Positions 1,622-43,721 of a stretch of 60,059 nucleotides of DNA are shown here, piece by piece. The position numbers were made by a program, and so were the translations under genes. The stretch is from an uncultured Candidatus Saccharibacteria bacterium (GTDB taxonomy: Bacteria; Patescibacteriota; Minisyncoccia; Phycocordibacterales; DATGWK01). The stretch is taken from positions 1-60,059 of the forward strand of contig CAYMIB010000001.1 in the NCBI GenBank assembly GCA_964390475.1, written 5' to 3'. The notes under the pieces were generated by a model. It ran no database searches. It was given only the letters and a program-made list of their open reading frames with translations, and was not told where the DNA came from. Position 1 is the stretch's first letter; each line of letters begins with the position of its first letter.

Positions 1622-2911
1622 TTATATAATATTTTTCCGCATATTATTTTTAAGAAAAATCTCAAGTATTTTTGGAAAATCAAAAAACTTAATGGTTGTT
1701 TCATTTCTTGCAATAATCTCCTTTCTTAACAAACTATCCATCTTAACGGCGCCAATAATTTTAGATGCAAATAAATGTGTGTCCCGAGGATCTACATAAA
1801 TTGATTCGTTTATGTCGAAAGCATCAACTGCACCGTCGACGTCGCTTATTATCGTTACAAAGTTCATATTTTTGGAAAAAAGTTTGGCCTCAATAGACGT
1901 GTGGGGGAACGGATCCATTAAAGATGGCACGCAGACTACTTCTGTGCTGTTTGTTCTTAAAATCGTCATCCAAACATTTGGATTAAAATCGTCAATGATT
2001 ATTACTCTAGGTATTTTTTTTAAAATTTCTTTTACTCCATTAAAATACTTTGTTTCGCCAGAATTATTGGGAATTTGTAAAATTAAATAATGATTCGGTA
2101 ATTTTTCAGCAACCTCAACCCAGGCAAGTGCTAATTCCTTAAACCCTTTTGCTATCGAACACCTACCCCACGCAAAAATTATTTTCTTGTCCTCAGAAAT
2201 TTTAATTCCAAATTTTTCCAAATCCCTATTACTAAACGTTACATCTAAAAATCCTTTGTACTTATCAAAGCATAAGCCATTTTGTAAGTAATCCTTTTCT
2301 GAAAAATGTATTCCGTAATCTTCGTGCATCCTTAGGGCAAATTTTTTGCCAAGTGAAATTACTTTTGAGTTTGGATCTTGTGTGATTTTATCAAAACAAA
2401 ATTGTTCCTCATCAATTCTTTTTTTTCTCCAATCCTCTAACCCAAATGCGTGATTTTTCCCCGTACTTAAGGGGAAGAAAAAACATTTTAAACCTCGGTC
2501 ACTAATCAGTTCTTTGTATTTAGCAAAAAACAAAAATGGTGTATCGCTTAAAATAATGTAATTCTCTTCATTGGAATCAAGCGTTAAATTAAGCGCTGTA
2601 ACCAAAGAAATACACAGATAATTCCACTCATCAAAACTTCTCCACATATCCCACTCACTTTCTCCTTTTGTGGAATTACATAAGGGAATCATTTTGCCAC
2701 CAGTTTTTGTTGTTAATTTTGTGGCCGCATCAAAGCATTGTTTGTTAAAAACTTTAGACGTTTGGTCTACATTTATGTATGCAATACTAATTTTAATATC
2801 TAAATTCCCCGAATCTAAAAGTGAGTTTATTATATTTTTTGAAATAGTTCCGACGCCAGAATAGTGGGTACCAACGCCGTCGTATGTGGCTATAATTAAG
2901 TGTTTTTTCAT
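1622..2911 (-). CDS. Putative GT-B fold glycosyltransferase
   Basis: 429-aa ORF in an AT-rich glycosyltransferase cluster. The N-terminus HLIIATYDGVGTHYSGVGT resembles GT-B enzymes. Family not confidently recognised. Confidence 0.35.
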   Translation of the reverse strand: MKKHLIIATYDGVGTHYSGVGTISKNIINSLLDSGNLDIKISIAYINVDQTSKVFNKQCFDAATKLTTKTGGKMIPLCNSTKGESEWDMWRSFDEWNYLCISLVTALNLTLDSNEENYIILSDTPFLFFAKYKELISDRGLKCFFFPLSTGKNHAFGLEDWRKKRIDEEQFCFDKITQDPNSKVISLGKKFALRMHEDYGIHFSEKDYLQNGLCFDKYKGFLDVTFSNRDLEKFGIKISEDKKIIFAWGRCSIAKGFKELALAWVEVAEKLPNHYLILQIPNNSGETKYFNGVKEILKKIPRVIIIDDFNPNVWMTILRTNSTEVVCVPSLMDPFPHTSIEAKLFSKNMNFVTIISDVDGAVDAFDINESIYVDPRDTHLFASKIIGAVKMDSLLRKEIIARNETTIKFFDFPKILEIFLKNNMRKNII

Positions 2912-2996
2912 GAATTACCGGGATACCTTTCTTGTCCATCCTAACCATTTAACTTTGGTAGTTAACAGGTTAGATAAATTCCCGTTTCTATTTTCT

Positions 2997-3032
2997 GCGG
3001 CGGACTGTTGAGGCTGTTAGAACTTATTATAT
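2997..3032 (+). repeat. Copy R1 of the ~40-bp intergenic repeat (GCGGCGGACTGTTGAGGCTGTTAGAACTTATTATAT)
   Basis: Direct sequence match to the copies at 3850, 4977, 6522 and 7872. Confidence 0.9.
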
Positions 3033-3081
3033 TAATTAAAAAAGCCGACATCGATATTATCGCATGCCAGCTTCTATTGCA

Positions 3082-3771
3082 TTATTTACGCAATACCTCA
3101 AAACCGTAAAACAGAATGTCGGGGTTTTCGTTGAGTGGTCGTTGCCCCATGAGCTCTGCGGTCCAGCCGTGCTCGTCGAGCATGGTTTGTATTGCGTCCA
3201 AAGGACCGAAATTTGCCTGAGCGAAGTAGATTCTCCCTCCCTTGGCTAGATGACCACCAACCCCGGCAAAGAACTCTTTGTGGACACGAAGTCCTTGGTC
3301 CCAAGTTGTACGTTCCGTCATTGTTCTGGTGGGCATGTCTCGGTATGGTGGGTTGAAAGTCACCACCTCGAATTGTGCCGCGGGATCGAGACCAGAAAAC
3401 ACATCCGAGACTAAGGCGTGATAATTGCGAACGTTGTGTTTTTTGGCATTAGAGTTGGCGCACTGGACCGACATTGGGTTGATGTCCAGTCCAGTTACAC
3501 CCCTTACTCCACGTTTCGCCGCGATAATGCCGACGACTCCACTGCCGCAACAAACATCTAGGACGCGGTCTCCCGGATTGACGACCATACCTTGGACAAG
3601 ACAGATCGAGTCCGGTCGGGGAGGAAAGACACCGGGTGACACCTCAAATTCTTCGTCGAAGTATTTCACGGTTCCACCTTGCATGAACTTCGTATGCAAA
3701 TCTTTCTGTAGTGTGGTTAGCTCCGCGGCTTCTTTTGGGGTCAGGTGCTTTTGCAGGCTCGAGATATTCAT
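3082..3771 (-). CDS. Class I SAM-dependent methyltransferase (MTS/PrmC-like, NPPY motif)
   Basis: 229 aa with VLDVCCGSGVVGIIAA (SAM motif I) and FNPPY. Visibly GC-richer than its neighbours. Confidence 0.7.
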   Translation of the reverse strand: MNISSLQKHLTPKEAAELTTLQKDLHTKFMQGGTVKYFDEEFEVSPGVFPPRPDSICLVQGMVVNPGDRVLDVCCGSGVVGIIAAKRGVRGVTGLDINPMSVQCANSNAKKHNVRNYHALVSDVFSGLDPAAQFEVVTFNPPYRDMPTRTMTERTTWDQGLRVHKEFFAGVGGHLAKGGRIYFAQANFGPLDAIQTMLDEHGWTAELMGQRPLNENPDILFYGFEVLRK

Positions 3772-3849
3772 TACAGTGCTCCTGTTTGTTTTTGACTATT
3801 CGCGCAAACGCCAACTTTAAATTACATCAAATTATTTTTTTGTCAACTT

Positions 3850-3912
3850 GGCGGAGAACTGTTGAGCCCTTCGCTTCACTCAGGATCTTCGAGCTGTTAG
3901 AACTTATTATAT
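3850..3912 (+). repeat. Copy R2 of the repeat, interrupted by an internal ~26-27 nt insertion (3867-3893)
   Basis: GGCGGAGAACTGTTGAG[cccttcgcttcactcaggatcttcgag]CTGTTAGAACTTATTATAT. Both halves match the consensus. Confidence 0.85.
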
Positions 3913-4950
3913 CGACCCTAACATCCAATTATCAACTTCCTTTCTTATCAGCTGACAATTTTGAGCAATGTTATCGTTTGAAAATATGAACGAGCCAAAA
4001 GCGATTCCAAAAGGGGATTCTCTCGGAATTTCTTTCAAAATCGATTTTATATTAGCGGGAGTTGCACCACCCACTATGATCGGAAGGGTTTTCTTTATTG
4101 GTAAATCTTTTGTAAATTCATGTATCATTTTGAGTTCGTCCTCTAAACTTAATCTGTAATAATCGCGTCCGCCAATAGGCATTACGTACGCATCACATCC
4201 AAAAAGGCGATGTAATTTAGCGACTAGTGCTGGAGATAAACTTTGCGAAAGAATACCCTGAAGAGCCATATGAGTGCAGAGAGGTGTCTTTGAAACTTTC
4301 TTTATTTGATTCAGCAAAGGAAAACCGATGGTCGATGCATTTATGAGGACCATGCTAATTTTTTCTGAATCGGGACCAGAAATCATCTCCATGTACTCTT
4401 TTTCTGAATCCAAGTTTACTGTTGGAATATAACCCTTCACATTTTTGGCTAATTCGATCCTGGCGTCTAGGGAAGAGTAGTCAAAATTTCCGAGCATTTC
4501 ATCATCTTTTACGGCATGAAACCCCGCCTCAAGAACCTCGTTGATTTTGTTTTTTAAATTAGATAACGGAGTATTTAACGAGGGCTTAATTATTCCCAAT
4601 AAAAGAGGATAGTTCTGTACATTAAATCTTTCCTTTATTTCTTCTGCACCAAAACTTGGCCCTGCAAATAAGGAGTAAATCTCCTTTGGTAATTCCAAGT
4701 CTAAAAAGGTTACTTTACCAAAGTCTTTCGCAAGCGAAATTTCTGCAAATAAAACAGAGATAAACTGTGTGACGGTACCATCAAATACGTTCAAGGGATA
4801 AAAAATGGAAAGGAGGAGCGTGTTCAAATCTACACTTTCTATTTCAAATCTACTACAAGGCAAATCAGAATTTTTCATCCAGTGCTGAATAAAACTTTCT
4901 ACCTTACTTTTTTCTGCATTCTCAAGTTTTAAGACAGATTTCAATTCCAT
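3907..4950 (-). CDS. Short RuBisCO large-subunit-like protein (RLP, form IV-like)
   Basis: GIIKPSL...HAVKDDEMLGN aligns to the RuBisCO KPKLG...KDDE active-site block. Start moved to M27 (4950) because the first 26 codons of the track ORF are just repeat R3. The stop codon lies inside repeat R2. Confidence 0.6.
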   Translation of the reverse strand: MELKSVLKLENAEKSKVESFIQHWMKNSDLPCSRFEIESVDLNTLLLSIFYPLNVFDGTVTQFISVLFAEISLAKDFGKVTFLDLELPKEIYSLFAGPSFGAEEIKERFNVQNYPLLLGIIKPSLNTPLSNLKNKINEVLEAGFHAVKDDEMLGNFDYSSLDARIELAKNVKGYIPTVNLDSEKEYMEMISGPDSEKISMVLINASTIGFPLLNQIKKVSKTPLCTHMALQGILSQSLSPALVAKLHRLFGCDAYVMPIGGRDYYRLSLEDELKMIHEFTKDLPIKKTLPIIVGGATPANIKSILKEIPRESPFGIAFGSFIFSNDNIAQNCQLIRKEVDNWMLGSI

Positions 4951-4976
4951 AGAATTCAACCTTTGTGCCCATACTA

Positions 4977-5017
4977 GCGGGGGACCGTTGAGGCTGTTAG
5001 AACGTATTATACAGAGC
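4977..5017 (+). repeat. Copy R3 of the repeat
   Basis: GCGGGGGACCGTTGAGGCTGTTAGAACGTATTATACAGAGC. Confidence 0.9.
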
Positions 5018-5075
5018 GTAATAAGCAAATCTATGCCCCAACGCTTACAAAAATCTAAGGGTGGGGTGAAACAGT

Positions 5076-5747
5076 ATGTATAGTGTAATATTAATATTCA
5101 TGAACTCAGATCAAGAAACAGACGACGTGTTAAACACGTACGAAAAAATTGCCGCAGACTATGCCACGACAGTGAAGTCTGATGTGCTGGACCATCGGTA
5201 TATTGAAAAATTTCTCCTTCTTTTTAAGCCTGGTCAAAAAATACTGGATATTGGGGTAGGAACAGGAACTTTGTCCGCCGAAATGAAAGAAAACCATGGA
5301 TTAGATGTCACCGCTATAGATTTTTCAAAAGAAATGCTCGACATTGCTCGAAAGAATCATGCGGACTTAAAAATACTTCGCATGGATTTGCGTGATCTTA
5401 ATTTTAAGGACGAATCTTTTGATGGTATCTTTGCAAACTATTCACTGATACATATCGTTGAAGGTGATGTTGCTGATTCAATAAAAGGCATGAATCGAGT
5501 CCTGAAGCCTGGTGGTTTACTATATTTGGCATTACAGGAGCCAATTACTCCAATGGATAAAGACGGTTATTATCCACTCGCCTATAGACCTGAGTTGAAA
5601 ATGTTTATCAATTTATTTACGGAAGATGAAATAAAAAATCATCTGGTAAAAACAGATTTTAAAATAGTCAGTATTGAAAGACGTGAGCCACAGAAGGAAA
5701 CCGAATTTCCTTTCTATAAGCTTTTCATAATTGCCGAAAAAATATAA
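5076..5747 (+). CDS. Class I SAM-dependent methyltransferase
   Basis: ILDIGVGTGTLS motif I and a Methyltransf_11/25-like layout. GGGTGGGG RBS 7 nt upstream. Confidence 0.7.
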   Translation: MYSVILIFMNSDQETDDVLNTYEKIAADYATTVKSDVLDHRYIEKFLLLFKPGQKILDIGVGTGTLSAEMKENHGLDVTAIDFSKEMLDIARKNHADLKILRMDLRDLNFKDESFDGIFANYSLIHIVEGDVADSIKGMNRVLKPGGLLYLALQEPITPMDKDGYYPLAYRPELKMFINLFTEDEIKNHLVKTDFKIVSIERREPQKETEFPFYKLFIIAEKI

Positions 5748-5778
5748 ACAAAGAGGCCCGCATCGTGTGACGCGGGCC

Positions 5779-6432
5779 TTAGGTTTGGTAGAGCCAGACA
5801 ATCGTTGTGATTATCCAGCTTGCTTCATTTGCGAACTCGCTTAGAGCGGAGCCCTTTCTGTTTCGGTCCCAGCCGGCTTCCTTGATGGAGAACCAGAGTT
5901 GACCAAGTCGAGAGAGGACTGAGACGTGACCGGCGATGATGGTTGTTGCCGCCAGCCCTGTGCCTCCAACGAAGAAAATGTTGACGGCGAGGGTCAGTTG
6001 CGGAACCCCCTTGAAGAAGACAGCAAGCCAGCCTTTGACCATCGGATCACTGATCGGCAGTTTCTTGTAGTGGGTGGTTAGGATGATGGCCACAATACCT
6101 GAGACCACTGCGATAGCTGTAGCGTTGTCGCGGCCGTTCCAGACCCAGTTGTTCTTGTAGAACATTGCTCCGAGATTGGCGCAGACCACGAGGGTCCAGC
6201 CAACGTAGCTCCACAAGGTCTGAATGGTCACTCTGCTCGGCTTGTTCTTGTGAGCATGGATGGCGAGTACAAGATTCAAGCAGAGGAAGATAAACCAACT
6301 CAGGTACCAGGTGATGCTTACTCCTGTAGAGGTCTGGAGAAGTCGAAGAAACTGACCGATTCCGAAAACGAGAATGCAAACGATTTGGACCCCAAAGAGC
6401 AGGTCCGCTGTCAGCTTTTTCTGCCAAGACAT
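5779..6432 (-). CDS. Multi-pass membrane protein (PQ-loop-like)
   Basis: 217 aa, about 6-7 hydrophobic helices, GGAGG RBS. TTGACT-16-TATTAT promoter at 6512-6517/6490-6495 on the minus strand. GC-rich. Confidence 0.4.
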   Translation of the reverse strand: MSWQKKLTADLLFGVQIVCILVFGIGQFLRLLQTSTGVSITWYLSWFIFLCLNLVLAIHAHKNKPSRVTIQTLWSYVGWTLVVCANLGAMFYKNNWVWNGRDNATAIAVVSGIVAIILTTHYKKLPISDPMVKGWLAVFFKGVPQLTLAVNIFFVGGTGLAATTIIAGHVSVLSRLGQLWFSIKEAGWDRNRKGSALSEFANEASWIITTIVWLYQT

Positions 6433-6521
6433 GCGAGCCTCCTTTGGTTTGGGATCCAGGGTTACAAGGTACGAAAAAACACCGTTATAATAATAGCATC
6501 AATATATAAAAAGTCAATAGT

Positions 6522-6562
6522 GCGGAGGACCGTTGAGGCTGTTAGAACTTATTATACAGAGC
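6522..6562 (+). repeat. Copy R4 of the repeat
   Basis: GCGGAGGACCGTTGAGGCTGTTAGAACTTATTATACAGAGC. Confidence 0.9.
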
Positions 6563-6720
6563 ATGGTGGTGAAATCTATGTACCTATTGCATAGTATTAT
6601 TTTATATGTTTTAATATGACCGGATCGAAAGCCACTTGTTGTGGTTTTGCTCATTGAAATCCTGGTCTGACTCCGCAAGGAGACTGGCTATCAACTCGAA
6701 CAAATCCGGAGAACTGACTC

Positions 6721-7797
6721 ATGAATACTCTCAGGACGATTGCAGACTACGAAAATGCTGCCCTGGGGAAACTTGGGGCGGGTCTCGCGGACTATGTCCA
6801 AAAGACGGCGGGTGAGGGACGGACGTTCCGTTCCAATCTCGGTGCGTACTCGCAGTACGGCCTCGTTGCCGGTTCGAGTTCCTCGGCGTTCAGAGTGCCG
6901 GCAACTAGCCTGAGGCTTATTGATAGAGGCATCATTTGGGCGCCGATCATGATCGCACCCACCGCTTGGCATGGCATGTTTACTCCGCGAGGAGAAGCGG
7001 CCACATCAGCGGCAGCAAGGATGTTTGGTACGAACTTCGTCATCTCTTCCTTTTCTACGCTCGACTTTCCTCAGATCGATTCCAGGCTCTCACATGCTTG
7101 GTACCAGCTCCTTATGTATAAGGATCTGGGTCTGATGAAGCGCTACATCGACAGGGCAATTGATGCCGGATGTTCAGCCATCGTCCTGACCGTGGACGCA
7201 GTGAACGGCTGCTCGATGTGCAAGACGGACCCAGCCATCCCTGTGGTGGAGTACCCGCTGCACAAGCTGCCGATCTTTCCTGAAGATCCGGCGGTTCCGT
7301 ACACGACCTTCGACGACTACTACGACAAGTACATGCCAAAGAAGCTTGATTGGGAGGATGTCCGAGAACTCGTGTCTTACACGAGAGTTTCGATGGTTCC
7401 GGTCGTCATCAAGGGAGTACTCACAGCAGAGGACGTTCTCAAAGCCGTCGAGGTTGGTGCGAAAGCCGTGATCATTTCAAATCACGGCGGACGACAGAAT
7501 GACGGGCTTCCGGCTACGCTGGAGGCTCTCGCACTGTTGCCAACCGATGTCAGGGACAGGATTGAGATCTACCTCGATGGTGGGATTCGCAGTGGGTCCG
7601 ATGTCTTCAAGGCGATTGCACTCGGTGCGAAAGCTGTGTTCATCGGTCGTCCTGCTCTCTACGGCCTCGCGGTCAACGGAGAGAAGGGGCTGACGAGCGT
7701 GCTCTTTATCCTCATTCAGGAACTGAGGGCATCTATGCGGCTCACGGGATGCAATTCACTCCAGGAAATTGGATCAGACAATGTAACGAAGGTCTAA
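6721..7797 (+). CDS. FMN-dependent alpha-hydroxy acid dehydrogenase/oxidase (glycolate/L-lactate oxidase family)
   Basis: 358 aa with the ISNHGGRQ, YLDGGIRSGSDVFKAIALGA and GRP motifs of the family. GC-rich. Confidence 0.8.
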   Translation: MNTLRTIADYENAALGKLGAGLADYVQKTAGEGRTFRSNLGAYSQYGLVAGSSSSAFRVPATSLRLIDRGIIWAPIMIAPTAWHGMFTPRGEAATSAAARMFGTNFVISSFSTLDFPQIDSRLSHAWYQLLMYKDLGLMKRYIDRAIDAGCSAIVLTVDAVNGCSMCKTDPAIPVVEYPLHKLPIFPEDPAVPYTTFDDYYDKYMPKKLDWEDVRELVSYTRVSMVPVVIKGVLTAEDVLKAVEVGAKAVIISNHGGRQNDGLPATLEALALLPTDVRDRIEIYLDGGIRSGSDVFKAIALGAKAVFIGRPALYGLAVNGEKGLTSVLFILIQELRASMRLTGCNSLQEIGSDNVTKV

Positions 7798-7825
7798 CGA
7801 TCTTCAATTTCGCAACAAACACTAA

Positions 7826-7860
7826 TGCACACTCGAAGGGGTGTGCATTTTTCTTTTTTT
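7826..7860 (+). terminator. Intrinsic terminator
   Basis: TGCACACtcgaaggGGTGTGCA hairpin followed by a T-run. Confidence 0.7.
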
Positions 7861-7871
7861 ATAAAACTTTT

Positions 7872-7908
7872 GGCGGAGGACCGTTGGGGCTGTTAGAAAG
7901 TATTATAC
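7872..7908 (+). repeat. Copy R5 of the repeat
   Basis: GGCGGAGGACCGTTGGGGCTGTTAGAAAGTATTATAC. Confidence 0.9.
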
Positions 7909-7965
7909 ATATTAGATGAAGAAAAAACCGACACACATTCGTGTGCCGGTTTGGGTGCCCATATT

Positions 7966-8832
7966 TTACAAAAGGTTCTCGGGTCGAACGACCAGTTGGA
8001 GTTTCGGCTCGTTCCCAAAGACACAGAAGCGAGTGATGTCCTCTTTCTTAACAACAACAGGACATCCGATGCCACCTTCTAGGGCCTCGTGTTTGAGCCA
8101 GCGATACATATCGACCATGAAAAGGTTGATTTCAAGCTCAAAGCCCTGGATGGTAGCGATCACAGCATAGTCTCTGGTCACCTCGTCCCACCTAAAGGCA
8201 GTGTAGAAGCCTTGGGAAAAAAGGTCTGTGAGAAGGTCGGGGTGAACGAGATGTAATCGATCGAAGGAGATGTGAATCTCTGTCGTCCGAAATTTTCTGC
8301 CGACGCTTGCCAGTGTGACTTTCTGGATATTTCTCACTGGACAGACTGTGGGAGAGCGTTCAGGTCTGAGAATGCCTCCAGGCATCTCGGCTCGGAAAGT
8401 TACACGCTCACCTTCTATGTACCCACTACTTGAAAGAGATTGCACCATTTCAACTCCGCGGCTGTAGAGGTCAAGAAATTCTTGGTACTTCTCTCCTGTA
8501 GAAATGCCGCCAAACTTTGCTGTGAGATGGGCAGTCGGTGCACCGAACAGCGATTGGTCTGAAAGAATGTTCGCCAACCTCTCATTGATCGGTTGGCCAC
8601 TCCGAGAAAACTGCTCCATCACTTCAGCGAAGCCGATTCTCTTGAAGTTCTGCCAGGTCAGCTTACCGCCTGTGGTCGCGACAAACCGGTCTACTGTTGC
8701 CAGGATGGAGTCATCGACCGTCTGAATGTCGAAGTGCAGATGGTCGTACACCCCATGGCTAGCCTCACTATTGCCCGCTGCAACAGAGATGCCGGTCGGG
8801 ATCGTCTTAGGAACAAAGATCTTATCACTCAT
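7966..8832 (-). CDS. Hypothetical protein
   Basis: 288-aa ORF, GC-rich, GGAGAA-type RBS (agggagaatccgATG). No family recognised. Confidence 0.5.
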   Translation of the reverse strand: MSDKIFVPKTIPTGISVAAGNSEASHGVYDHLHFDIQTVDDSILATVDRFVATTGGKLTWQNFKRIGFAEVMEQFSRSGQPINERLANILSDQSLFGAPTAHLTAKFGGISTGEKYQEFLDLYSRGVEMVQSLSSSGYIEGERVTFRAEMPGGILRPERSPTVCPVRNIQKVTLASVGRKFRTTEIHISFDRLHLVHPDLLTDLFSQGFYTAFRWDEVTRDYAVIATIQGFELEINLFMVDMYRWLKHEALEGGIGCPVVVKKEDITRFCVFGNEPKLQLVVRPENLL

Positions 8833-9013
8833 CGGATTCTCCCTTGTTGATTGTTTGTGAATCTTGCTCTATATTCGGGCACAATATTTTATTGTCAACA
8901 TAATTTGACGACAATATTTAATTATGTATACTTATGTAAATGATGGGCGACAGCAGGTACGGCGCCATTGAGCCAAACTTAGACCTGTTGTCATACATAA
9001 AAGACAAATCGAG

Positions 9014-9775
9014 ATGAAACAAGAACTGATAAAATTAGGTCTTACAGGAGATGAAGCAACTGTGTATTTGGCTGTGCTCGAATTGGGCCAATCTCCAGCA
9101 GGCCCTATCGTCAAAAAATGTCTGATGCATAGACAACAGGTGTACGACAATCTCAATAAACTCAGAGAGAAACAACTTATTTCTGAAACCATTAAATCAA
9201 ACCGCAAAAACTGGATGGCCTCGCATCCCGAAGAGATTATTCGGCAGATTAAGGAGAAACATTCTCTAGCCGAGAGCATTCTGCCTACATTGCTATCAAC
9301 CTACAAACTTTCTTCACATAAACAAGAGGTAAGGGTATTCGAGGGTATAGAAGGCTTCAAGGCTGTGCACAAAATAAATATTACTCATCAACCAAAGAAT
9401 ACTATTGTTCCTGTTATGGGAGCTAACGGCTGGAATTGGGTTGAAATAATGAAAGATGCTCATTATCTTAAGCAATACGAAAAACTTCGAGTAGAAAAAA
9501 ATATAGCCCATCATCTTGTTTTCTTCGAGAAAGAACGGAAGGGAACCGAGGAACTTATTGAGAAACACTTTGGTTCAAATCCACTAGAGAGAAAGAGGGT
9601 GTATAAATTTCTACCCGATGAATTTCAAAGCCCAGTTGGAATGCAGATCTGGCACGACAACATCACTCTTATTATCTATTCAAACCCAGTCGTTGTAATA
9701 CAAATCATCAACACCCTCGTTGTTAAAAACTTCCAAAAGTATTTTGATTTTCTGTGGAAGGTTGCAAATAAATAA
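9014..9775 (+). CDS. TrmB-family HTH transcriptional regulator
   Basis: The N-terminus LGLTGDEATVYLAVLELGQSPAGPIVKKCLMHRQQVYDNLNKL is a typical TrmB wHTH. Confidence 0.65.
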   Translation: MKQELIKLGLTGDEATVYLAVLELGQSPAGPIVKKCLMHRQQVYDNLNKLREKQLISETIKSNRKNWMASHPEEIIRQIKEKHSLAESILPTLLSTYKLSSHKQEVRVFEGIEGFKAVHKINITHQPKNTIVPVMGANGWNWVEIMKDAHYLKQYEKLRVEKNIAHHLVFFEKERKGTEELIEKHFGSNPLERKRVYKFLPDEFQSPVGMQIWHDNITLIIYSNPVVVIQIINTLVVKNFQKYFDFLWKVANK

Positions 9776-9848
9776 TCTGGATTCGAACCTAAAAATACAG
9801 CTTCAAACAAAAGAAAAATCACCATTTCTAGTAATTTTTCTCACGTGC

Positions 9849-9933
9849 GGAGGAGGTGAGATTCGAACTCACGGTCCCTTGCGAGACTCTCGTTTTCAAG
9901 ACGAGTGCGATAGACCACTCTGCCACTCCTCCG
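9849..9933 (-). tRNA. tRNA-Ser (anticodon TGA)
   Basis: Manual fold: acceptor GGAGGAG/CTCCTCC, anticodon loop CTTGAAA, long variable arm, T-loop GTTCGAATC. CCA not encoded. Confidence 0.9.
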
Positions 9934-11348: not shown

Positions 11349-11376
11349 ATAATATCAACTTTCTAGAAAAAGTCAA
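11349..11376 (-). promoter_or_regulatory. Sigma70-type promoter TTGACT-17-TATTAT
   Basis: Reverse complement reads aTTGACTttttctagaaagttgaTATTATcttgcCAGA, upstream of the 10357-11271 gene. Confidence 0.55.
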
Positions 11377-11425
11377 TAGCCCACAAAATAGTGTAGAATG
11401 AGAAAATAAATCCAAGATTAATAAC

Positions 11426-17811: not shown

Positions 17812-17883
17812 GGTGGCTATAGTTTAGTGGTAAAACCCAAGTTTGTGGAACTTGAGTCGAGGGTTCGATTCCCTCTAGTCACC
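17812..17883 (+). tRNA. tRNA-His (anticodon GTG) with encoded G-1
   Basis: Manual fold: G-1, acceptor GTGGCTA/TAGTCAC, anticodon stem CAAGT/ACTTG, loop TTGTGGA, discriminator C. Confidence 0.9.
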
Positions 17884-17954
17884 CAGCGTTTAAAATCTAT
17901 AAAATACCCTTGTTTTAAGGGTTGTTTTTGGTTCCACAAAACAGCTGTTTTCTG

Positions 17955-17983
17955 TTTGACATATTCACATTTACGTGATATTC
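17955..17983 (+). promoter_or_regulatory. Sigma70-type promoter TTGACA-17-TATTCT
   Basis: Canonical spacing, upstream of the two-gene orphan operon. Confidence 0.6.
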
Positions 17984-18064
17984 TTTTTAACAGAGGTAAG
18001 AATGTCTTATCTGCTCATTCACAAGGGTCCTAGAGAACCCGTTACTCCCGAAAGGAGAAATCTC

Positions 18065-18454
18065 ATGCTTACTTCTACCCAGGTGTCCCTCGTGGCCGAC
18101 TTCGAGTCCTGTATTCACAACACCAGGTGTTGGTACGGGGCGAGCGTTGACAAGGTGGTGCAAGAGACCAAGGGGAGTGATCACCCTCACTCCTTCGATG
18201 GCTACTGCATCTGCATGACGCCGGAGTGGGTGAAGGATGTTTACACCCTCCTCACATCACGCGGTATCAAGCCAGAACCATTCTTTGAATTTCTCGCAGA
18301 ACGCGAGTGGTTCAAGAAAGGCGCTGACTTTCTCAACGCGAAACGACTGAACGGGTATGGTAAGGATGATGCGGTGGAAAGAGACGATCAATATTGTCTC
18401 GAACTCCCACATCTCATCAGGCTATTCCGTGAGTTCGTTGAGCGGTCCGCGTAG
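18065..18454 (+). CDS. Hypothetical protein (orphan A, upstream of the hammerhead)
   Basis: GC-rich ORF. The ATG at 18065 is preceded by GAAAGGAGAAATCTC, nearly identical to the RBS context of orphan B. An in-frame ATG at 18002 is an alternative start. Confidence 0.5.
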   Translation: MLTSTQVSLVADFESCIHNTRCWYGASVDKVVQETKGSDHPHSFDGYCICMTPEWVKDVYTLLTSRGIKPEPFFEFLAEREWFKKGADFLNAKRLNGYGKDDAVERDDQYCLELPHLIRLFREFVERSA

Positions 18455-18564
18455 CCCAAGCGTAAGAAGGAAGTCAGCGCGAAAAAATAAGCGCAGACAA
18501 TCCTTCAGGGATGGATTCGTATATCCAAATAAAATACGAACGCAGGTAGAGCGTTTCTCTACCA

Positions 18565-18613
18565 CTGTCGGGAAGTGTGTACTTCTCCTGATGAGTCCGA
18601 AAGGACGAAACAG
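18565..18613 (+). ncRNA. Type III hammerhead ribozyme
   Basis: CUGUC^GGGAAGU-GUGU-ACUUCUC-CUGAUGA-GUCC-GAAA-GGAC-GAA-ACAG. The complete conserved core is present: CUGAUGA, GAAA and a GUC cleavage triplet. Helix I has 7 bp, helix II 4 bp with a GAAA loop, and open helix III has 4 bp. Confidence 0.85.
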
Positions 18614-18667
18614 AAGTGTTCTTTCACAAACGGTCATAGCGAACCACTTCCTGAAAGGAGAAATCGC

Positions 18668-19141
18668 ATGTTTCGGAAACTGACTACAATCATCGACAGT
18701 AAGTTGGTGAGGGAGATGGACAGGAAAGAGGGTCTTCGGTCGGGGAAAGGATTTGAGGAGTGTTTGCTCCTCGGACATCGGTTGGTTTCGGTGGCGTTTC
18801 AAGCTCCCGAAAACATCCTGAATCTTTTCTCCACGAATAACCCTCTACCTTTTGGGATGGACGGCGATCTTTATGATCGTCTACGTCATTCCCGCGAGGC
18901 ACGGGTGAGGAATCACCAAGTCGCAATTCAACAGGCAGCTCGAATCGACTCGGTTGTCAGTCTCATCGACACCAGCGACGTCTTCAGGTTGGTGATGTAC
19001 TGCTACCGGTGCGAGGAAAAGGAACCGTTCTATAGGGTTCGTTTCCACATCAACTCTAAGGGGGAATTTGTTCATGCCGATGTGGACCCTAAGGGTGATG
19101 GTCCATCCGATCCTGGTCATTTTGTTTCCAGGATTGTGTAA
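18668..19141 (+). CDS. Hypothetical protein (orphan B, downstream of the hammerhead)
   Basis: ATG preceded by GAAAGGAGAAATCGC. 157 aa, GC-rich. Confidence 0.55.
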   Translation: MFRKLTTIIDSKLVREMDRKEGLRSGKGFEECLLLGHRLVSVAFQAPENILNLFSTNNPLPFGMDGDLYDRLRHSREARVRNHQVAIQQAARIDSVVSLIDTSDVFRLVMYCYRCEEKEPFYRVRFHINSKGEFVHADVDPKGDGPSDPGHFVSRIV

Positions 19142-19149
19142 TCAATAGC

Positions 19150-19190
19150 CCCCACGAAAATCCCACGGGACGTTTCGTGGGGTTTTCTTT
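19150..19190 (+). terminator. Intrinsic terminator
   Basis: CCCCACGAAA...TTTCGTGGGG hairpin followed by TTTTCTTTT. Confidence 0.75.
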
Positions 19191-19424
19191 TATATGGTGA
19201 GTTCGTGAGTTGGGTATAATACAGGAATGTAGATAGTGGCATCGTTTTTCTGTTCAAATTTAGTTCTAACATCCTCTACTACGGCACCCTGGTTAGAATT
19301 TTTAAACAAAAGCTTTATTCAGCAAGGACTTTTTGGTTCTAGCTGTTTCGCTTTCTTGATACATTTTACTTTCTAACAAATTTTAAATACCATTGGCCCA
19401 GAACACCATAAAGGAGAAGAGAAT

Positions 19425-26389: not shown

Positions 26390-27367
26390 ATGCGTCTTAA
26401 AAATATTATTCTTGCGAGTTTTGTTCTGTTGGTTGTCATGTCTTTTGGAACAGTTTTTGCTCCGAAAAATACTTCAGCTCAAGTTAGTACTTCTAGTCAC
26501 TGCACCTTTGGCAGTGGAAACCTTGAAGTTGGAGTTATAAACGAAGAAGTTCGTTGTCTTCAAAAGTTCTTAAACGAAAACGGTTTTAAAATCGCTGAAG
26601 CTGGTGTTGGCTCACCTGGTCAAGAGACCACAATGTTCGGCGAGCTCACAAAGGGTGCTGTAATGCGATGGCAGAACGCTAATGGTATTACTTCGACAGG
26701 AATTTTTGGTCCGCTTTCTCAGGAAAAATATTTAAAATCTATCGCCGCTCTTTTGACCAGTCAGCTTTCTGCTGCTAGTACTGGCTTTGCTCCAGGTTCT
26801 GGTGTGCCAGTTCCAGCAGGCACTGTTGGAAACTCAGGTAACAATCAACCACCGGCTGCTCAGGGGAATGAAGAACAGGAAGAAGCAAGAGATGCTGTTT
26901 TGGAAGCTCGTGATGCGATCGAAAAGGCAGAGGACGATGTCGAGGATGCGGACGCAGACGAGATTGATGTCGAAGATGCAAATGATGATATCGCAGATGC
27001 AAAAGATGATTTGCTTGACGCACTCTACGCTTTTGTTGAAGAGGACTATTCAGAAGCAAAAAATAAAGCCGAAGACGTTATAGATTCGATGGGGGATATT
27101 TTGGATGAACTACACGGCGATGACAGCGATGCCGAAGAAGCTATTGATGATGCTCGAGCCGCTATTGAAGATGCAGACGAACAAATCGATGAAGCCTACG
27201 ATGATGATGAGGAGGTAGACGCCGCTAGAAATCTTCTCGAAGACGCTGAGGATAAACTAGACGATGCCGAAGAAGCCTTTGACGACGAAGACTTTGATGA
27301 AGCCGAAGATTTGGCGAATGAAGCCGAAGATTTGGCTGACGATGCAGTAGATGCAATCGGTAACTAG
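26390..27367 (+). CDS. Secreted peptidoglycan-binding-domain protein with hyper-acidic D/E/A-rich tail
   Basis: Signal peptide. PG_binding_1-like CLQKFLNENGF...GELTKGAVMRWQNANGITSTGIFGP. About 170 aa of low-complexity acidic repeats. Confidence 0.65.
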   Translation: MRLKNIILASFVLLVVMSFGTVFAPKNTSAQVSTSSHCTFGSGNLEVGVINEEVRCLQKFLNENGFKIAEAGVGSPGQETTMFGELTKGAVMRWQNANGITSTGIFGPLSQEKYLKSIAALLTSQLSAASTGFAPGSGVPVPAGTVGNSGNNQPPAAQGNEEQEEARDAVLEARDAIEKAEDDVEDADADEIDVEDANDDIADAKDDLLDALYAFVEEDYSEAKNKAEDVIDSMGDILDELHGDDSDAEEAIDDARAAIEDADEQIDEAYDDDEEVDAARNLLEDAEDKLDDAEEAFDDEDFDEAEDLANEAEDLADDAVDAIGN

Positions 27368-40224: not shown

Positions 40225-41055
40225 ATGGGTTCCAAGAATAGTAGTAAGGGCAAGCCAGTGCCAACTGATGACACGTTTGGGGAGTATGTGGCAAACGTTT
40301 TGCGCGGAATGCAGCCTGGGTATCCAGTAGACGTGGTGAGTCCGCGGGAAATTCTGATAAATGGTCGTCGTCTGGATCCGGATAATCTCCTTCGAATGGT
40401 GAACAATGAGCCTGACCGTGGACAGGAAATTGTGGAGCTTTACCTGGAGCAATTGTTGCTTGGTGAGGTGATCCAACTCGCGACGATACCCTTCGACTTT
40501 GCAAGGCCCAGGATCATGCCACGTATCCGGCCCGAGTCGATCTTCGAGCATCTCTCTCGTGATCAGGTCGCACACGTGCCGTTTGTGAACGATACTGTGA
40601 TTACGTTTGTGACCGATCTTCCTGATATGACAATTTCGATCACCACCGATCAACTGACACGGTGGAAGGTGCCGATCAGTGAGATTGACAAGATTGCACG
40701 ACACAATCTGGATAGCCGTCTGGATAAAAATCTTTCTTACCCGGATATCCAGACTGCTCGAAATCACCACAGTGAAATGGTGGCCATTGGTGTTAGTGAT
40801 GGATACGACGCGTCGAGGTTGCTGTTTGTTGATTTGTTCGAGCGTATGCAACCTACCCTCGGTAAAAAATTCTACGTGGCCATTCCGGCTCGTGACTGTT
40901 TCACGGCATTCAACTGTTCTAACGATAGTGCGCTTCAGAATATGCGTGGCATGATTCAGAGTGACTTTATGAAGCTTCCATATCCAATCACACCAGCATT
41001 GTTCACTGTCACCAGCGACGGCGTCGTTGGGTCAGAAGATTTGGCGAAGAAGTGA
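40225..41055 (+). CDS. DUF1444 (YtpQ/UPF0354)-like protein, paralog 1
   Basis: IMPRIRPESIFE...HVPFVNDTVITFVTD...SDGYDASRLL...YVAIPARDCF parallels the B. subtilis YtpQ pattern from memory. GC-rich. Confidence 0.5.
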   Translation: MGSKNSSKGKPVPTDDTFGEYVANVLRGMQPGYPVDVVSPREILINGRRLDPDNLLRMVNNEPDRGQEIVELYLEQLLLGEVIQLATIPFDFARPRIMPRIRPESIFEHLSRDQVAHVPFVNDTVITFVTDLPDMTISITTDQLTRWKVPISEIDKIARHNLDSRLDKNLSYPDIQTARNHHSEMVAIGVSDGYDASRLLFVDLFERMQPTLGKKFYVAIPARDCFTAFNCSNDSALQNMRGMIQSDFMKLPYPITPALFTVTSDGVVGSEDLAKK

Positions 41056-42746: not shown

Positions 42747-43721
42747 ATGAGTCAAGTCGAGGCTAGCAAGTCCAAACTGAACGATTTACTCGTTAACTTG
42801 GCACAAGCCACTCGGACTGGTGAACTCACTATGGAGCAACTGGAGTGGTTTTCGAAGTCGACTAAGGAGCAGCGCGAAAAGTTGCTAGAAGACATGCGGT
42901 CAGCTTGCTCCCTGTTAGAGGAAGAGACCGCACGCGAAGCAAAAGTCGGTTTCGCAGCATTTGTGGCGCAAACCTTGCGTAGGATTAATCCCAAGCTTTC
43001 GGTTGTTGAAGTATCTGCGATGGAAGTTCAGGTTGATGGTCGGCGCCTCGACCTAGAGAACATCTGGCGCATGGTGAATCATGATCCTGAACGAAAGACG
43101 GAAATTATTGAGCACTACCTGAATCAAATGTTTTTAGGTGATGGAATTCAATTGAGCACAATGTCTTTCGAGTTCGCCAGACCCAAGATTATGCCGCGCA
43201 TCCAGCCCGAGTCGATTTTCGAACTCCTCTCGCGTGATCACGTCGCCCACGTACCGTTCGTCAACGATACGGTGATTGTGTTTGTGACTGATCTGCCGAA
43301 TATGACAATTTCCATCACCACCGAGCAATTGGTGAGATGGAAAGTGTCAGCTGAAGACATCGGTAGGATTGCCAAAGAAAACCTTGCCAAATACGTTCCT
43401 GATCTGGAAGTCAGTCTCGTCGAGAGCAAAGAAGGTGCACAGGCTGCGATTTTTGGTCAGCACGATGGCTACGACGCAGCCCGTCTCTGGCTTACTGGAC
43501 TCTACGAGCGTTTTTGCGATCAACTTGGCGGCGACTTTTTTGTCGCTGTGCCAGCCCGGGACATGTTTGTGGCGTTCAGTCGTGGTCCGGAGCCTTTCAT
43601 ACGGCGATTACGAGAGCGCGTAACATCAGACTTCAAAAGACTTCCGTACCCGATCTGCCCGGACTTTTTTCTGGTCACTCGCGATGGTGTTGCCGGGACG
43701 AAGCCAGTGTCTGCGTTCTAG
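42747..43721 (+). CDS. DUF1444 (YtpQ/UPF0354)-like protein, paralog 2
   Basis: Shares a long ungapped block with the 40225 gene (IMPRIQPESIFELLSRDHVAHVPFVNDTVIVFVTDLPNMTISITTEQLVRWKV). Confidence 0.5.
   Translation: MSQVEASKSKLNDLLVNLAQATRTGELTMEQLEWFSKSTKEQREKLLEDMRSACSLLEEETAREAKVGFAAFVAQTLRRINPKLSVVEVSAMEVQVDGRRLDLENIWRMVNHDPERKTEIIEHYLNQMFLGDGIQLSTMSFEFARPKIMPRIQPESIFELLSRDHVAHVPFVNDTVIVFVTDLPNMTISITTEQLVRWKVSAEDIGRIAKENLAKYVPDLEVSLVESKEGAQAAIFGQHDGYDAARLWLTGLYERFCDQLGGDFFVAVPARDMFVAFSRGPEPFIRRLRERVTSDFKRLPYPICPDFFLVTRDGVAGTKPVSAF

Follow-up and report, generated by a model that had tools for sequence, protein, structure and literature searches.

We analysed a 60,059-nt stretch of DNA (the window) from an uncultured Candidatus Saccharibacteria bacterium of the Candidate Phyla Radiation (CPR), contig CAYMIB010000001.1, positions 1 to 60,059. 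It contains a tRNA-Ser(UGA) gene (9847-9932, minus strand) and, to the left of this gene, five copies of a repeat of about 40 nt, all on the plus strand and all intergenic. This repeat, its relation to the tRNA gene and its candidate role as an attachment (att) junction are the subject of this study. An earlier note on this DNA had described five same-orientation copies and had taken the tRNA gene for an island boundary; the copies, named here R1 to R5, were re-measured at the same places, and the tRNA-Ser(tga) gene is present. The 20-mer GGCTGTTAGAACTTATTATA, with up to three mismatches, matches exactly R1-R5 in the 60 kb, as compared to a mean of 0.01 matches in shuffled sequences, none of 100 shuffles reaching five. 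A profile search of the window gave no DNA-level copy beyond these.

The copies delimit short modules, and a Pfam search of the genes between them agrees with the gene list drawn up earlier. A GT1 glycosyltransferase gene (1622-2911, minus strand) is located to the left of R1. The R1-R2 module (3032-3847) carries an MTS-type methyltransferase gene (3082-3771, minus strand; GC 0.49), and the R2-R3 module (3912-4974) a gene for a RuBisCO_large-like protein (3907-4950, minus strand; GC 0.37). The latter assignment is uncertain, with a score of 27.9 bits against a Pfam cut-off of 30.1 and partial coverage of the catalytic domain. In the R3-R4 module (5059-6519), a terminator (5754-5779) lies between a Methyltransf_25 gene (5076-5747, plus strand; GC 0.38) and the gene of an unassigned 217-residue protein (5779-6432, minus strand; GC 0.51). 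The R4-R5 module (6595-7869) contains a gene for a flavin mononucleotide-dependent dehydrogenase (FMN_dh; 6721-7797, plus strand; GC 0.52). Finally, the module between R5 and the tRNA (7908-9846) encodes an unassigned 288-residue protein (7966-8832, minus strand; GC 0.49) and a TrmB-family protein (9014-9775, plus strand; GC 0.38), and no recombinase remnant adjoins tRNA-Ser within it. The GC content is 0.34 to the left of R1 and 0.45 in the rest of the window. Computed per module, it spans 0.37 to 0.52 against this 0.45 background, which bears out the compositional mosaic noticed before. The modules of the window measure 0.85-2 kb; at loci of the same kind in other genomes (L003, L005, L007, L014 and L018; L numbers denote loci outside the window) the range is 0.45-4.2 kb. 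Such small and regular sizes are compatible with cassettes without proving them. Genes to the left of the copies are nearly always transcribed away from the copy.

The repeat is made of two parts, a core of 9-11 nt, T(G)GCGGAGGA, and an arm of about 26 nt, CCGTTGAGGCTGTTAGAACnTATTATA, hereafter named the P' arm. R1 (2996-3031) has the core TGCGGCGGA and the P' arm CTGTTGAGGCTGTTAGAACTTATTATA. R2 (3848-3911) is disrupted: TTGGCGGAGAACTGTTGAG (3848-3866) is followed by a 27-nt insert (3867-3893) and then by CTGTTAGAACTTATTATA (3894-3911). The insert replaces a single G between GTTGAG and CTGTTAGAAC, a net gain of 26 nt, as the earlier note had seen; its right part, CAGGATCTTCGAG, resembles either a second left half that has decayed or an antisense T-arm in degenerate form. 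R3 (4975-5011) is a long-tail copy with a peptide-level extension to 5058. Two further remarks of the note hold here: the RuBisCO-like gene has its stop codon (3907-3909) inside R2, and R3 provides a spurious extension of the same open reading frame (ORF; 3907-5028). R4 (6520-6556, extension to 6594) is the best-preserved copy and contains GTGCGGAGGACCGTTGAGGCTGTTAGAACTT. R5 (7870-7907), with TTGGCGGAGGA, is closest to tRNA-Ser and has convergent terminators on either side (7824-7849 and 7925-7952). A search for hairpins and dyads in the repeat gave nothing significant, in line with the earlier description.

In four genomes the core matches the antisense 3' end of tRNA-Ser(UGA) exactly, CCA included where it is gene-encoded. 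In these genomes the antisense tRNA-Ser reads (T)TG(G)CGGAGGA|GGTGAGATTCGAAC, and R4, R5 and the copy of L026 read ...T(G)GCGGAGGA|CCGTTGAGG. In the window the antisense 3' end of the tRNA is GTGCGGAGGAGGTGAGATTCGAAC, and TTGGCGGAGGA of R5 corresponds to this end with its CCA. Read on the minus strand, R5 to R1 finish with ..TCCTCCGC(CA), as tRNA-Ser does with ..CTCCTCCGC. The tRNA-derived portion of the repeat is limited to the last 9-11 nt of this minus form. That the whole repeat might be a tRNA 3' half was ruled out, the minus form being 5 nt too long from the T-loop-like GTTCTAA to the acceptor end.

Beside tRNA-Ser, the copies also have a constant orientation relative to the tRNA. Direct repeats of the tRNA end adjoin the 3' side of tRNA-Ser in the orientation of the tRNA, so that plus-form copies are followed, to the right, by a tRNA-Ser(tga) gene on the opposite strand; this layout is found in the window, L003, L004 and L014. 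With one specific tRNA involved, and for genomes assumed to be about 1 Mb, such a constant orientation cannot be a coincidence. On the 5' side of tRNA-Ser, L003, L027 and L030 share with the window DUF5652, RuvX, PilM and the genes of tRNA-Arg, tRNA-Val, tRNA-Leu and tRNA-His. On the 3' side the content is different in every genome compared, and the flank adjoining tRNA-Ser is also variable among genomes. Because one side is conserved while the other, with the adjacent flank, is variable, most of the recognition seems to be carried by the tRNA side.

The P' arm is of coding origin. The plus strand of the repeat contains the frame ..[TGG/NTG] CGG nnn ACY GTT GAG GCT GTT AGA ACN TAT TAT.., translated as [W/M/V/L]-R-x-T-V-E-A-V-R-T-Y-Y, and the differences between copies are mostly at third codon positions. 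The two "half-sites" that the earlier note distinguished in the repeat are both codons of this single frame, and an apparent CGG-NNNN-CYG hairpin is likewise merely codons. Copies from other CPR genomes show mainly synonymous changes (GTT to GTA, AGA to CGA, ACT/ACG/ACC, GCT to GCC, TAT to TAC). Those of L011-L015, found with a peptide profile, have GTT to GTA and AGA to CGA, with TTT TAT, TGG TAT or TAC TAC in place of TAT TAT. A hand count over nine codons was restricted to copies not ascertained by peptide, i.e. R1-R5 and the second copies of L003, L005 and L007. It gave five variable columns at third positions, three at second positions and none at first positions, all third-position changes being synonymous. 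Further downstream, an extension is kept at the peptide level only, ..RT[YFW]YExxxxx[FI]Y[IVM]P.., followed by K-L in L011-L015. R1 reads L-R-R-T-V-E-A-V-R-T-Y-Y-I-N-stop, R3 reads R-G-T-V-E-A-V-R-T-Y-Y-T-E-R-N-K-Q-I-Y-A-P-T-L-T-K-I-stop and R4 reads (V)RRTVEAVRTYYTEHGGEIYVPIA-stop, while in R2 the insert interrupts the frame. Stop-to-stop frames span 16-45 codons in most copies, and an in-frame TAG directly upstream makes R3 untranslatable on its own. The short frames, this upstream stop and the frameshift of R2 identify the copies as gene fragments rather than genes.

The gene from which they come encodes a large serine recombinase (LSR). P0004, a 76-residue protein matched by the repeat profile, has 174 relatives of 66-133 residues in CPR genomes. 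Their alignment reads ..ITKDIYDKKHQE..EMSEHxKADYDYQTTVATVxSVARRAKTIFENSSEPAxKRAFLNYLLQNPTVNEKKLxFTIASPFNLVLELADSPNWLR, followed by variable tails. An exhaustive profile search retrieved this C-terminal domain in 1669 representative proteins, and full-length members of about 500 residues (P0163, P0167, P0235 and P0252) display the Pfam domains Resolvase, Recombinase and Zn_ribbon_recom. The repeat peptide R-x-T-V-E-A-V-R-T-Y-Y is the C-terminal tail of this family. Tails of two kinds are observed: a "native" one, W-[LR]-x-x-[VL]-[DE]-x-[VIF]-R-T..., which includes the window repeat, and another, for example ..WLRGQDSNLRP.., which is the antisense translation of a tRNA T-arm.

Several loci link the repeat to an LSR gene directly. 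In L026 (482-793), the C-terminal remnant P0205 continues uninterrupted into ...TGCGGAGGACCGTTGAGGCTGTTAGAACTT; its 3' end is identical to GTGCGGAGGACCGTTGAGGCTGTTAGAACTT of R4 over 29 of 29 nt, and the junction reads ..ACTACTA|TGCGGAGGA|CCGTTGAGGCTGTTAGAACTTGGTATGAG... A repeat-type tail is also continuous with an LSR gene of another lineage in L011, L016 and L018. The second kind of tail is illustrated by L019, where a full-length LSR of 519 residues (4297-5856, plus strand) overlaps tRNA-Asn (5815-5889, minus strand) by 42 nt, with the junction ..CCATCT|TGGCTCC|GGGGGCGGGGATCGAACC and the core TGGCTCC. At tRNA-Ser itself, L027 and L030, two loci in synteny with the window (shared RuvX, PilM, tRNA-Arg, tRNA-Val, tRNA-Leu and tRNA-His neighbourhood), contain a remnant that abuts the tRNA via the core, ...|T/GTGCGGAGGA|GGTGAGATTCGAAC, the sequence running ..ATTACG|TTGCGGAGGA|GGTGAGATTCGAAC.. 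into tRNA-Ser. About 0.6 kb upstream of its remnant, at position ~9410, L027 also shows a distal junction, terminator|TGGCGGGAG|P', with the tail REWLDAFRTVKW. Many fragments of the Ser lineage end in ..T[MVL]RRR-stop, and the ending predicted by the model beside tRNA-Ser, ..[M/V/L]-R-R-R-stop, is found in 15 of 57 relatives of P0205. None of these 57 matches is a full-length LSR of the Ser lineage; all are fragments of at most 152 residues.

LSR C-terminal remnants truncated at the 5' end, 60-150 residues long and with 60-95 % mutual identity, are extremely common in CPR genomes (for example L016 9947-10243, L018 7974-8342, L026 482-793, L027 10001-10294, L030 10001-10312, and P0270-P0324), and many are located near contig ends. 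In many Ser-lineage remnants the similarity is lost at about the same residues (..G|ITDEMYDSFLREYKEKQ..), the remnant starting near ..ITDEMYD.., which hints at a second preferred breakpoint or at a piece retained for some reason. The region 1-5856 of L019 corresponds to the one intact element seen, although its contig stops ahead of the distal junction. Upstream of the LSR it encodes a GmrSD/HNH nuclease, an EcoRI-type methylase and an HTH_17 protein that may be an excisionase-like factor; the cargo is therefore of defence type.

The copies begin at a sharp breakpoint. In a set of 21 relaxed-pattern matches, 17 of which are flank|core|P' copies of the tRNA-Ser type, the information content drops from about 1.7 bits at the GC of GCGG to background two to three positions leftward. 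In addition, none of the window copies retains conserved LSR codons (..SPFNL..SPNW) on its left. The fixed breakpoint and the absence of LSR codons to the left argue that the copies are site-specific junctions with the layout flank, core and P' arm. A P arm to the left of the copies was considered and rejected: GTCAA-N4-5 precedes GCGG only in R2, R4, L004 and two L014 copies. The same stretch can also be read as a TTGAC -35 box of the divergent gene, and the overall information is at background there.

A sixth, divergent junction copy, derived from a different LSR lineage, is located at 19190-19290 on the minus strand and belongs to another recombinase-type island of the window (17813-19290), distinct from that at tRNA-Ser. 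It was found by a peptide-profile search of the six-frame translation (E = 4e-8). Its tail, G-A-V-V-E-D-V-R-T-K-F-E-Q-K-N-D-A-T-I-Y-I-P-V-L-Y-P-T-H-E-L-T-I-stop, is very similar to those of recombinases P0112 and P0156 and is followed by what, read by eye, is a terminator-like G+C-rich hairpin. The putative target is tRNA-His(GUG) (17813-17884, plus strand; antisense 3' end TGGGTGACTAGAGGGAATCG), whose 3' end lies 1.3 kb away in the predicted geometry. The core of the sixth copy, AGGGTGCC, is nearer to antisense tRNA-His, TGGGTGAC, than to tRNA-Ser. The intervening module (17885-19189; 1.3 kb, GC 0.48) contains two ORFs (17975-18454 and 18575-19141). In L027, an LSR fragment of 274 residues overlaps tRNA-His likewise. 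The core thus changes with the adjacent tRNA in three lineages (Ser, Asn and His).

The repeat recurs in other CPR genomes. An exact-pattern scan of one genome per species gave five true loci (L001 and L003-L006) in metagenome-assembled genomes (MAGs) of Saccharibacteria, Parcubacteria and Taylorbacteria; L002 proved to be a chance hit in a Bacteroidota coding region. The metagenome collection scanned added one further locus only. The IMG/VR viral collection had no matches, and a viral origin was dropped. Second copies, 0.7-4 kb away and in the same orientation, were identified by profile search in L003, L005 and L007. Among CPR bacteria the motif is widespread, and it is clustered in other genomes as well. 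An all-against-all BLASTP comparison of module proteins found no module common to the window and the other loci, and a strain comparison based on the FMN dehydrogenase and the DUF5652 proteins returned only contigs with an identical arrangement. The only recurrent cargo family consists of unassigned proteins of about 180 residues encoded beside motif copies in L001 (1456-2010) and L003 (6507-7034), with 42 % identity. In L004, short forms of the type GGCTGTTAGAACTTTTT(T)AC.. occur at 1709-1722 and 2340-2354, each located just after the terminator of a minus-strand gene and before the start of the following one. One of them reads ATG GCT GTT AGA ACT TTT TAC GGG CAA TAA (M-A-V-R-T-F-Y-G-Q-stop). 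Both are probably P' arms that have decayed further, in which case the Taylorbacteria array would have three units.

Overall, each repeat is very probably an attL-type junction of an LSR element integrated into the 3' end of tRNA-Ser(UGA). Among the options of the earlier note, the one supported is a recombination scar assembling cassettes, with tRNA-Ser as the island boundary, the core being the tRNA-Ser 3' end and the P' arm the LSR tail. In the proposed mechanism, a junction would be composed of a variable flank, a 9-11-nt core corresponding to the antisense tRNA acceptor end, and the P' arm, which would form the final codons of the recombinase gene in the free element. There, the site P|core|P' would span the end of this gene. 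The LSR gene would read toward the tRNA on the opposite strand, with a crossover inside its last codons. Recombination with flank|core|tRNA (the putative attB side) would give flank|core|P' - cargo - recombinase-P|core|tRNA, and the window repeats would represent the flank|core|P' type of junction. The integrated LSR would then end in antisense-tRNA codons on the tRNA-proximal side, its native tail being orphaned at the distal end. Repeated integration at one tRNA would push older insertions outward, giving the order R1 to R5 followed by the tRNA, and the mosaic of modules. Recognition mainly on the tRNA side could permit a new insertion at an occupied tRNA.

Several points weigh against this reading. 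No recombinase gene or fragment was found in the 60-kb window, and none of the five modules retains a P arm; serial integration therefore needs an extra step, either precise loss of the recombinase end, by decay or abortive excision, or mobilisation in trans. An integrase is absent from the window island, with remnants at the same site in L027 and L030. To our knowledge, canonical LSRs recombine only attP with attB, and repeated insertion at an occupied tRNA is not textbook behaviour. Among the strain contigs, all arranged alike, neither an empty site nor a circular junction nor a strain polymorphism was found. The L003 copies beside tRNA-Ser have only GCGG in common with that tRNA, and those of L001, L005, L006 and L007 have no tRNA inside the retrieved DNA. 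The set of copies was partly collected by exact DNA pattern or peptide profile, which inflates both the conservation and the share of synonymous changes. Finally, no inverted symmetry is visible in the repeat, and the P arm of attP is known from remnants only; symmetry is not expected in a hybrid junction, since its left flank is arbitrary.

If the modules move in trans, the junctions could belong to a CPR gene-capture platform of integron type, driven by an LSR instead of an integron integrase and including a tail-swap switch. We regard this as a tentative and rather unlikely extension. Units of 0.45-4 kb, with one to three genes, no recombinase and a site made of core and P' only, may be inserted and excised in trans at the 3' ends of tRNA-Ser, tRNA-His and tRNA-Asn or at resident copies of the site. 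The LSR may have its native tail (..VEAVRTYY..IYIPKL) only when excised and an antisense-tRNA tail when integrated, so that the tail swap could act as a built-in directionality switch.

Other explanations were compared with the att junction. The copies could be the last 3' ends of LSR pseudogenes eroded by ordinary deletions; the great number of 5'-truncated remnants of 60-150 residues in CPR genomes makes it clear that such genes do decay. Random erosion is improbable, since flank|core|P' copies lose similarity at one position, to the left of the tRNA-matching core, no copy keeps even a few codons of ..PFNL..SPNW, and the core follows the neighbouring tRNA (Ser, Asn, His). The repeat could also be a portable minus-strand promoter/leader (TATAAT with a conserved 5' leader) or an upstream activator site serving the gene to its left, as the earlier note proposed. 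The features on which that proposal was built are present: TATAAT is found on the minus strand in five of five copies, TTGACA follows R2 and TTGACT follows R4, and a minus-strand gene starts 27-90 nt leftward in four of five copies, other loci being alike. R2 even offers TTGATA-18-TATAAT, with 11 of 12 matches. However, TATTATA is simply the two Tyr codons of the LSR tail, and related copies in the same gene arrangement have TGGTAT, TTTTAT or TACTAC, the -10 box being lost in L012, L014 and L026. A -35 box stands at the right distance in one of five copies (R2), a separate -35/-10 pair lies between repeat and gene in R2 and R4, R5 faces a terminator, and promoter-like sites in the region number 10, against 10.4 in shuffles. 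In addition, variation of the synonymous type and continuity with the LSR gene are not expected of a promoter, and the CCUCC once read as an anti-Shine-Dalgarno sequence is the antisense acceptor stem of tRNA-Ser. We therefore consider a promoter or activator role quite improbable as the origin of the repeat, while the "YY" variants may carry an incidental outward promoter. Sites for sigma-70 (both strands), sigma-54, extracytoplasmic function (ECF)-type sigma factors and the archaeal B recognition element (BRE)/TATA pair were sought by eye and by scan, and none fits all copies. Likenesses to RfaH ops/JUMPStart (GGCGGTAG), rrn boxA (GUUCU..AACA), LexA boxes, Xer/dif sites and integron GTTRRRY core sites were dropped on spacing or conservation.

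It is very unlikely that the copies form a family of small independent genes, each encoding a peptide of 14-31 residues (M-R-x-T-V-E-A-V-R-T-Y-Y...). The peptide is conserved, and in several copies (L013/L014; R4) the first conserved codon is exactly ATG, GTG or TTG and the stop is followed by a terminator. Yet the LSR itself has this NTG codon there (..T[MVL]RR..), a Shine-Dalgarno sequence is absent from all copies, and a start codon is missing in R5, in most TGG-type copies and in R3, with its in-frame upstream TAG, while R2 is frame-shifted by its net insert of 26 nt. A structured RNA, or a transcription-factor site, for example for the adjacent TrmB-family protein, would be in keeping with the strong DNA-level conservation across distant CPR lineages and with the two direct GTTRRR boxes of the repeat. 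This conservation is accounted for by the LSR gene and the att site, though, and no Rfam match is obtained even at E=1. The folding energy equals that of shuffles on both strands (z -0.15 to 0.86), with no dyad. TrmB is absent from the other motif-bearing loci, and no TrmB-repeat link is demonstrable. An RNA or regulator site is thus scarcely credible.

Other repeated sequences are present in the window. Positions 6490-6520 and 11349-11379 have a 31-nt stretch in common (81 % identity) with, on the minus strand, TTGACT-N16/17-TATTAT ahead of minus-strand genes, for the 217-residue protein and for a protein of 304/313 residues beside RuvX, respectively. The second stretch is not followed by the repeat; the pair looks like a shared house promoter type. 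The largest direct repeat of the window (300 nt, 74 %) corresponds to two paralogous genes, 40225-41055 and 42747-43721 (both plus strand), which are 2.7 kb apart, encode proteins with 51 % identity and have no relation to the att repeats. Similarly unrelated is an intragenic run of short degenerate repeats at 26965-27357, an Asp/Glu-rich coding repeat of GAT/GAA/GCC codons.

The att junctions can be compared with known systems, among which tycheposon islands and SCCmec composite arrays come closest. Tycheposon islands of Prochlorococcus integrate at specific tRNA 3' ends, including that of tRNA-Ser(tga) (Hackl et al., 10.1101/2020.12.28.424599). Tycheposons can occur in tandem with only a partial tRNA copy between them, newcomers displacing older elements outward, and their islands hold fragmented integrases and extra partial tRNAs (10.1101/2020.12.28.424599). 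Tyrosine recombinases are found in 910 of 937 elements, and the repeat comprises about 40 nt of the tRNA (10.1101/2020.12.28.424599). The window has a similar organisation, with a tRNA, same-orientation repeats containing the tRNA end, and mosaic cargo. In contrast, its system is LSR-based, in a CPR host; the tRNA part of the repeat is 9-11 nt, the remainder being an LSR C-terminal coding tail, and the modules comprise one or two genes, without integrase or replication genes.

In staphylococci, tandem cassettes resembling the staphylococcal cassette chromosome (SCC), with additional att sites in one orientation, are mobilised by the SCCmec-encoded Ccr (PMC11470126). Functionally, SCCmec composite arrays offer the best analogue of modules that lack a recombinase and lie between repeated att sequences. 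SCC elements, whose recombinases CcrAB or CcrC are LSRs, insert downstream of a conserved gene at a site in the 3' end of that gene. Their target is the protein-coding rlmH (orfX), in sense, whereas the window target is a tRNA read antisense by the LSR, and SCC cassettes measure tens of kb, as compared to about 1 kb for the window modules. Mobilisation in trans has been demonstrated for SCC and is hypothetical for the window modules. In SSV-type integrases of Sulfolobus viruses, the att site lies inside the integrase gene and matches a tRNA gene. There, as proposed here, integration splits off part of the recombinase gene, which is left at the far end of the element; SSV uses a tyrosine recombinase and loses a large part of the gene, whereas in the CPR LSR only the last 12-30 codons are swapped for antisense-tRNA codons and the gene is otherwise intact (L019). 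The modules also recall integron arrays, as small, mostly single-gene, promoter-poor units with recombination-site copies beside a fixed platform. They differ by the absence of an attC-type fold or dyad (z ~0), a serine recombinase rather than the IntI tyrosine recombinase, a tRNA platform and mixed gene orientation.

Islands with att repeats seeded by a tRNA and cassette arrays of serine recombinases are thus both already known. In the literature covered, which is incomplete, nothing was found on this LSR family, on the antisense tRNA overlap or on such CPR arrays. CPR bacteria, or Patescibacteria, have tiny genomes with few recognisable mobile elements, and their gene acquisition is little understood. 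The locus points to one route of gene acquisition in CPR, which uses a widespread LSR family and tRNA 3' ends and leaves a 40-nt distal signature. It also explains two artefacts: the many short "hypothetical proteins" of 60-150 residues in CPR genomes are LSR remnants, and contig breaks occur beside them. There is a modest chance that the recombinase-less modules form a real cassette system. Should they be mobile, they would constitute a cassette system with a new type of mechanism, and the LSR family would provide compact tRNA-targeting serine integrases with defined att sites. The 40-nt signature itself could help to locate DNA gained by horizontal transfer across thousands of CPR MAGs.

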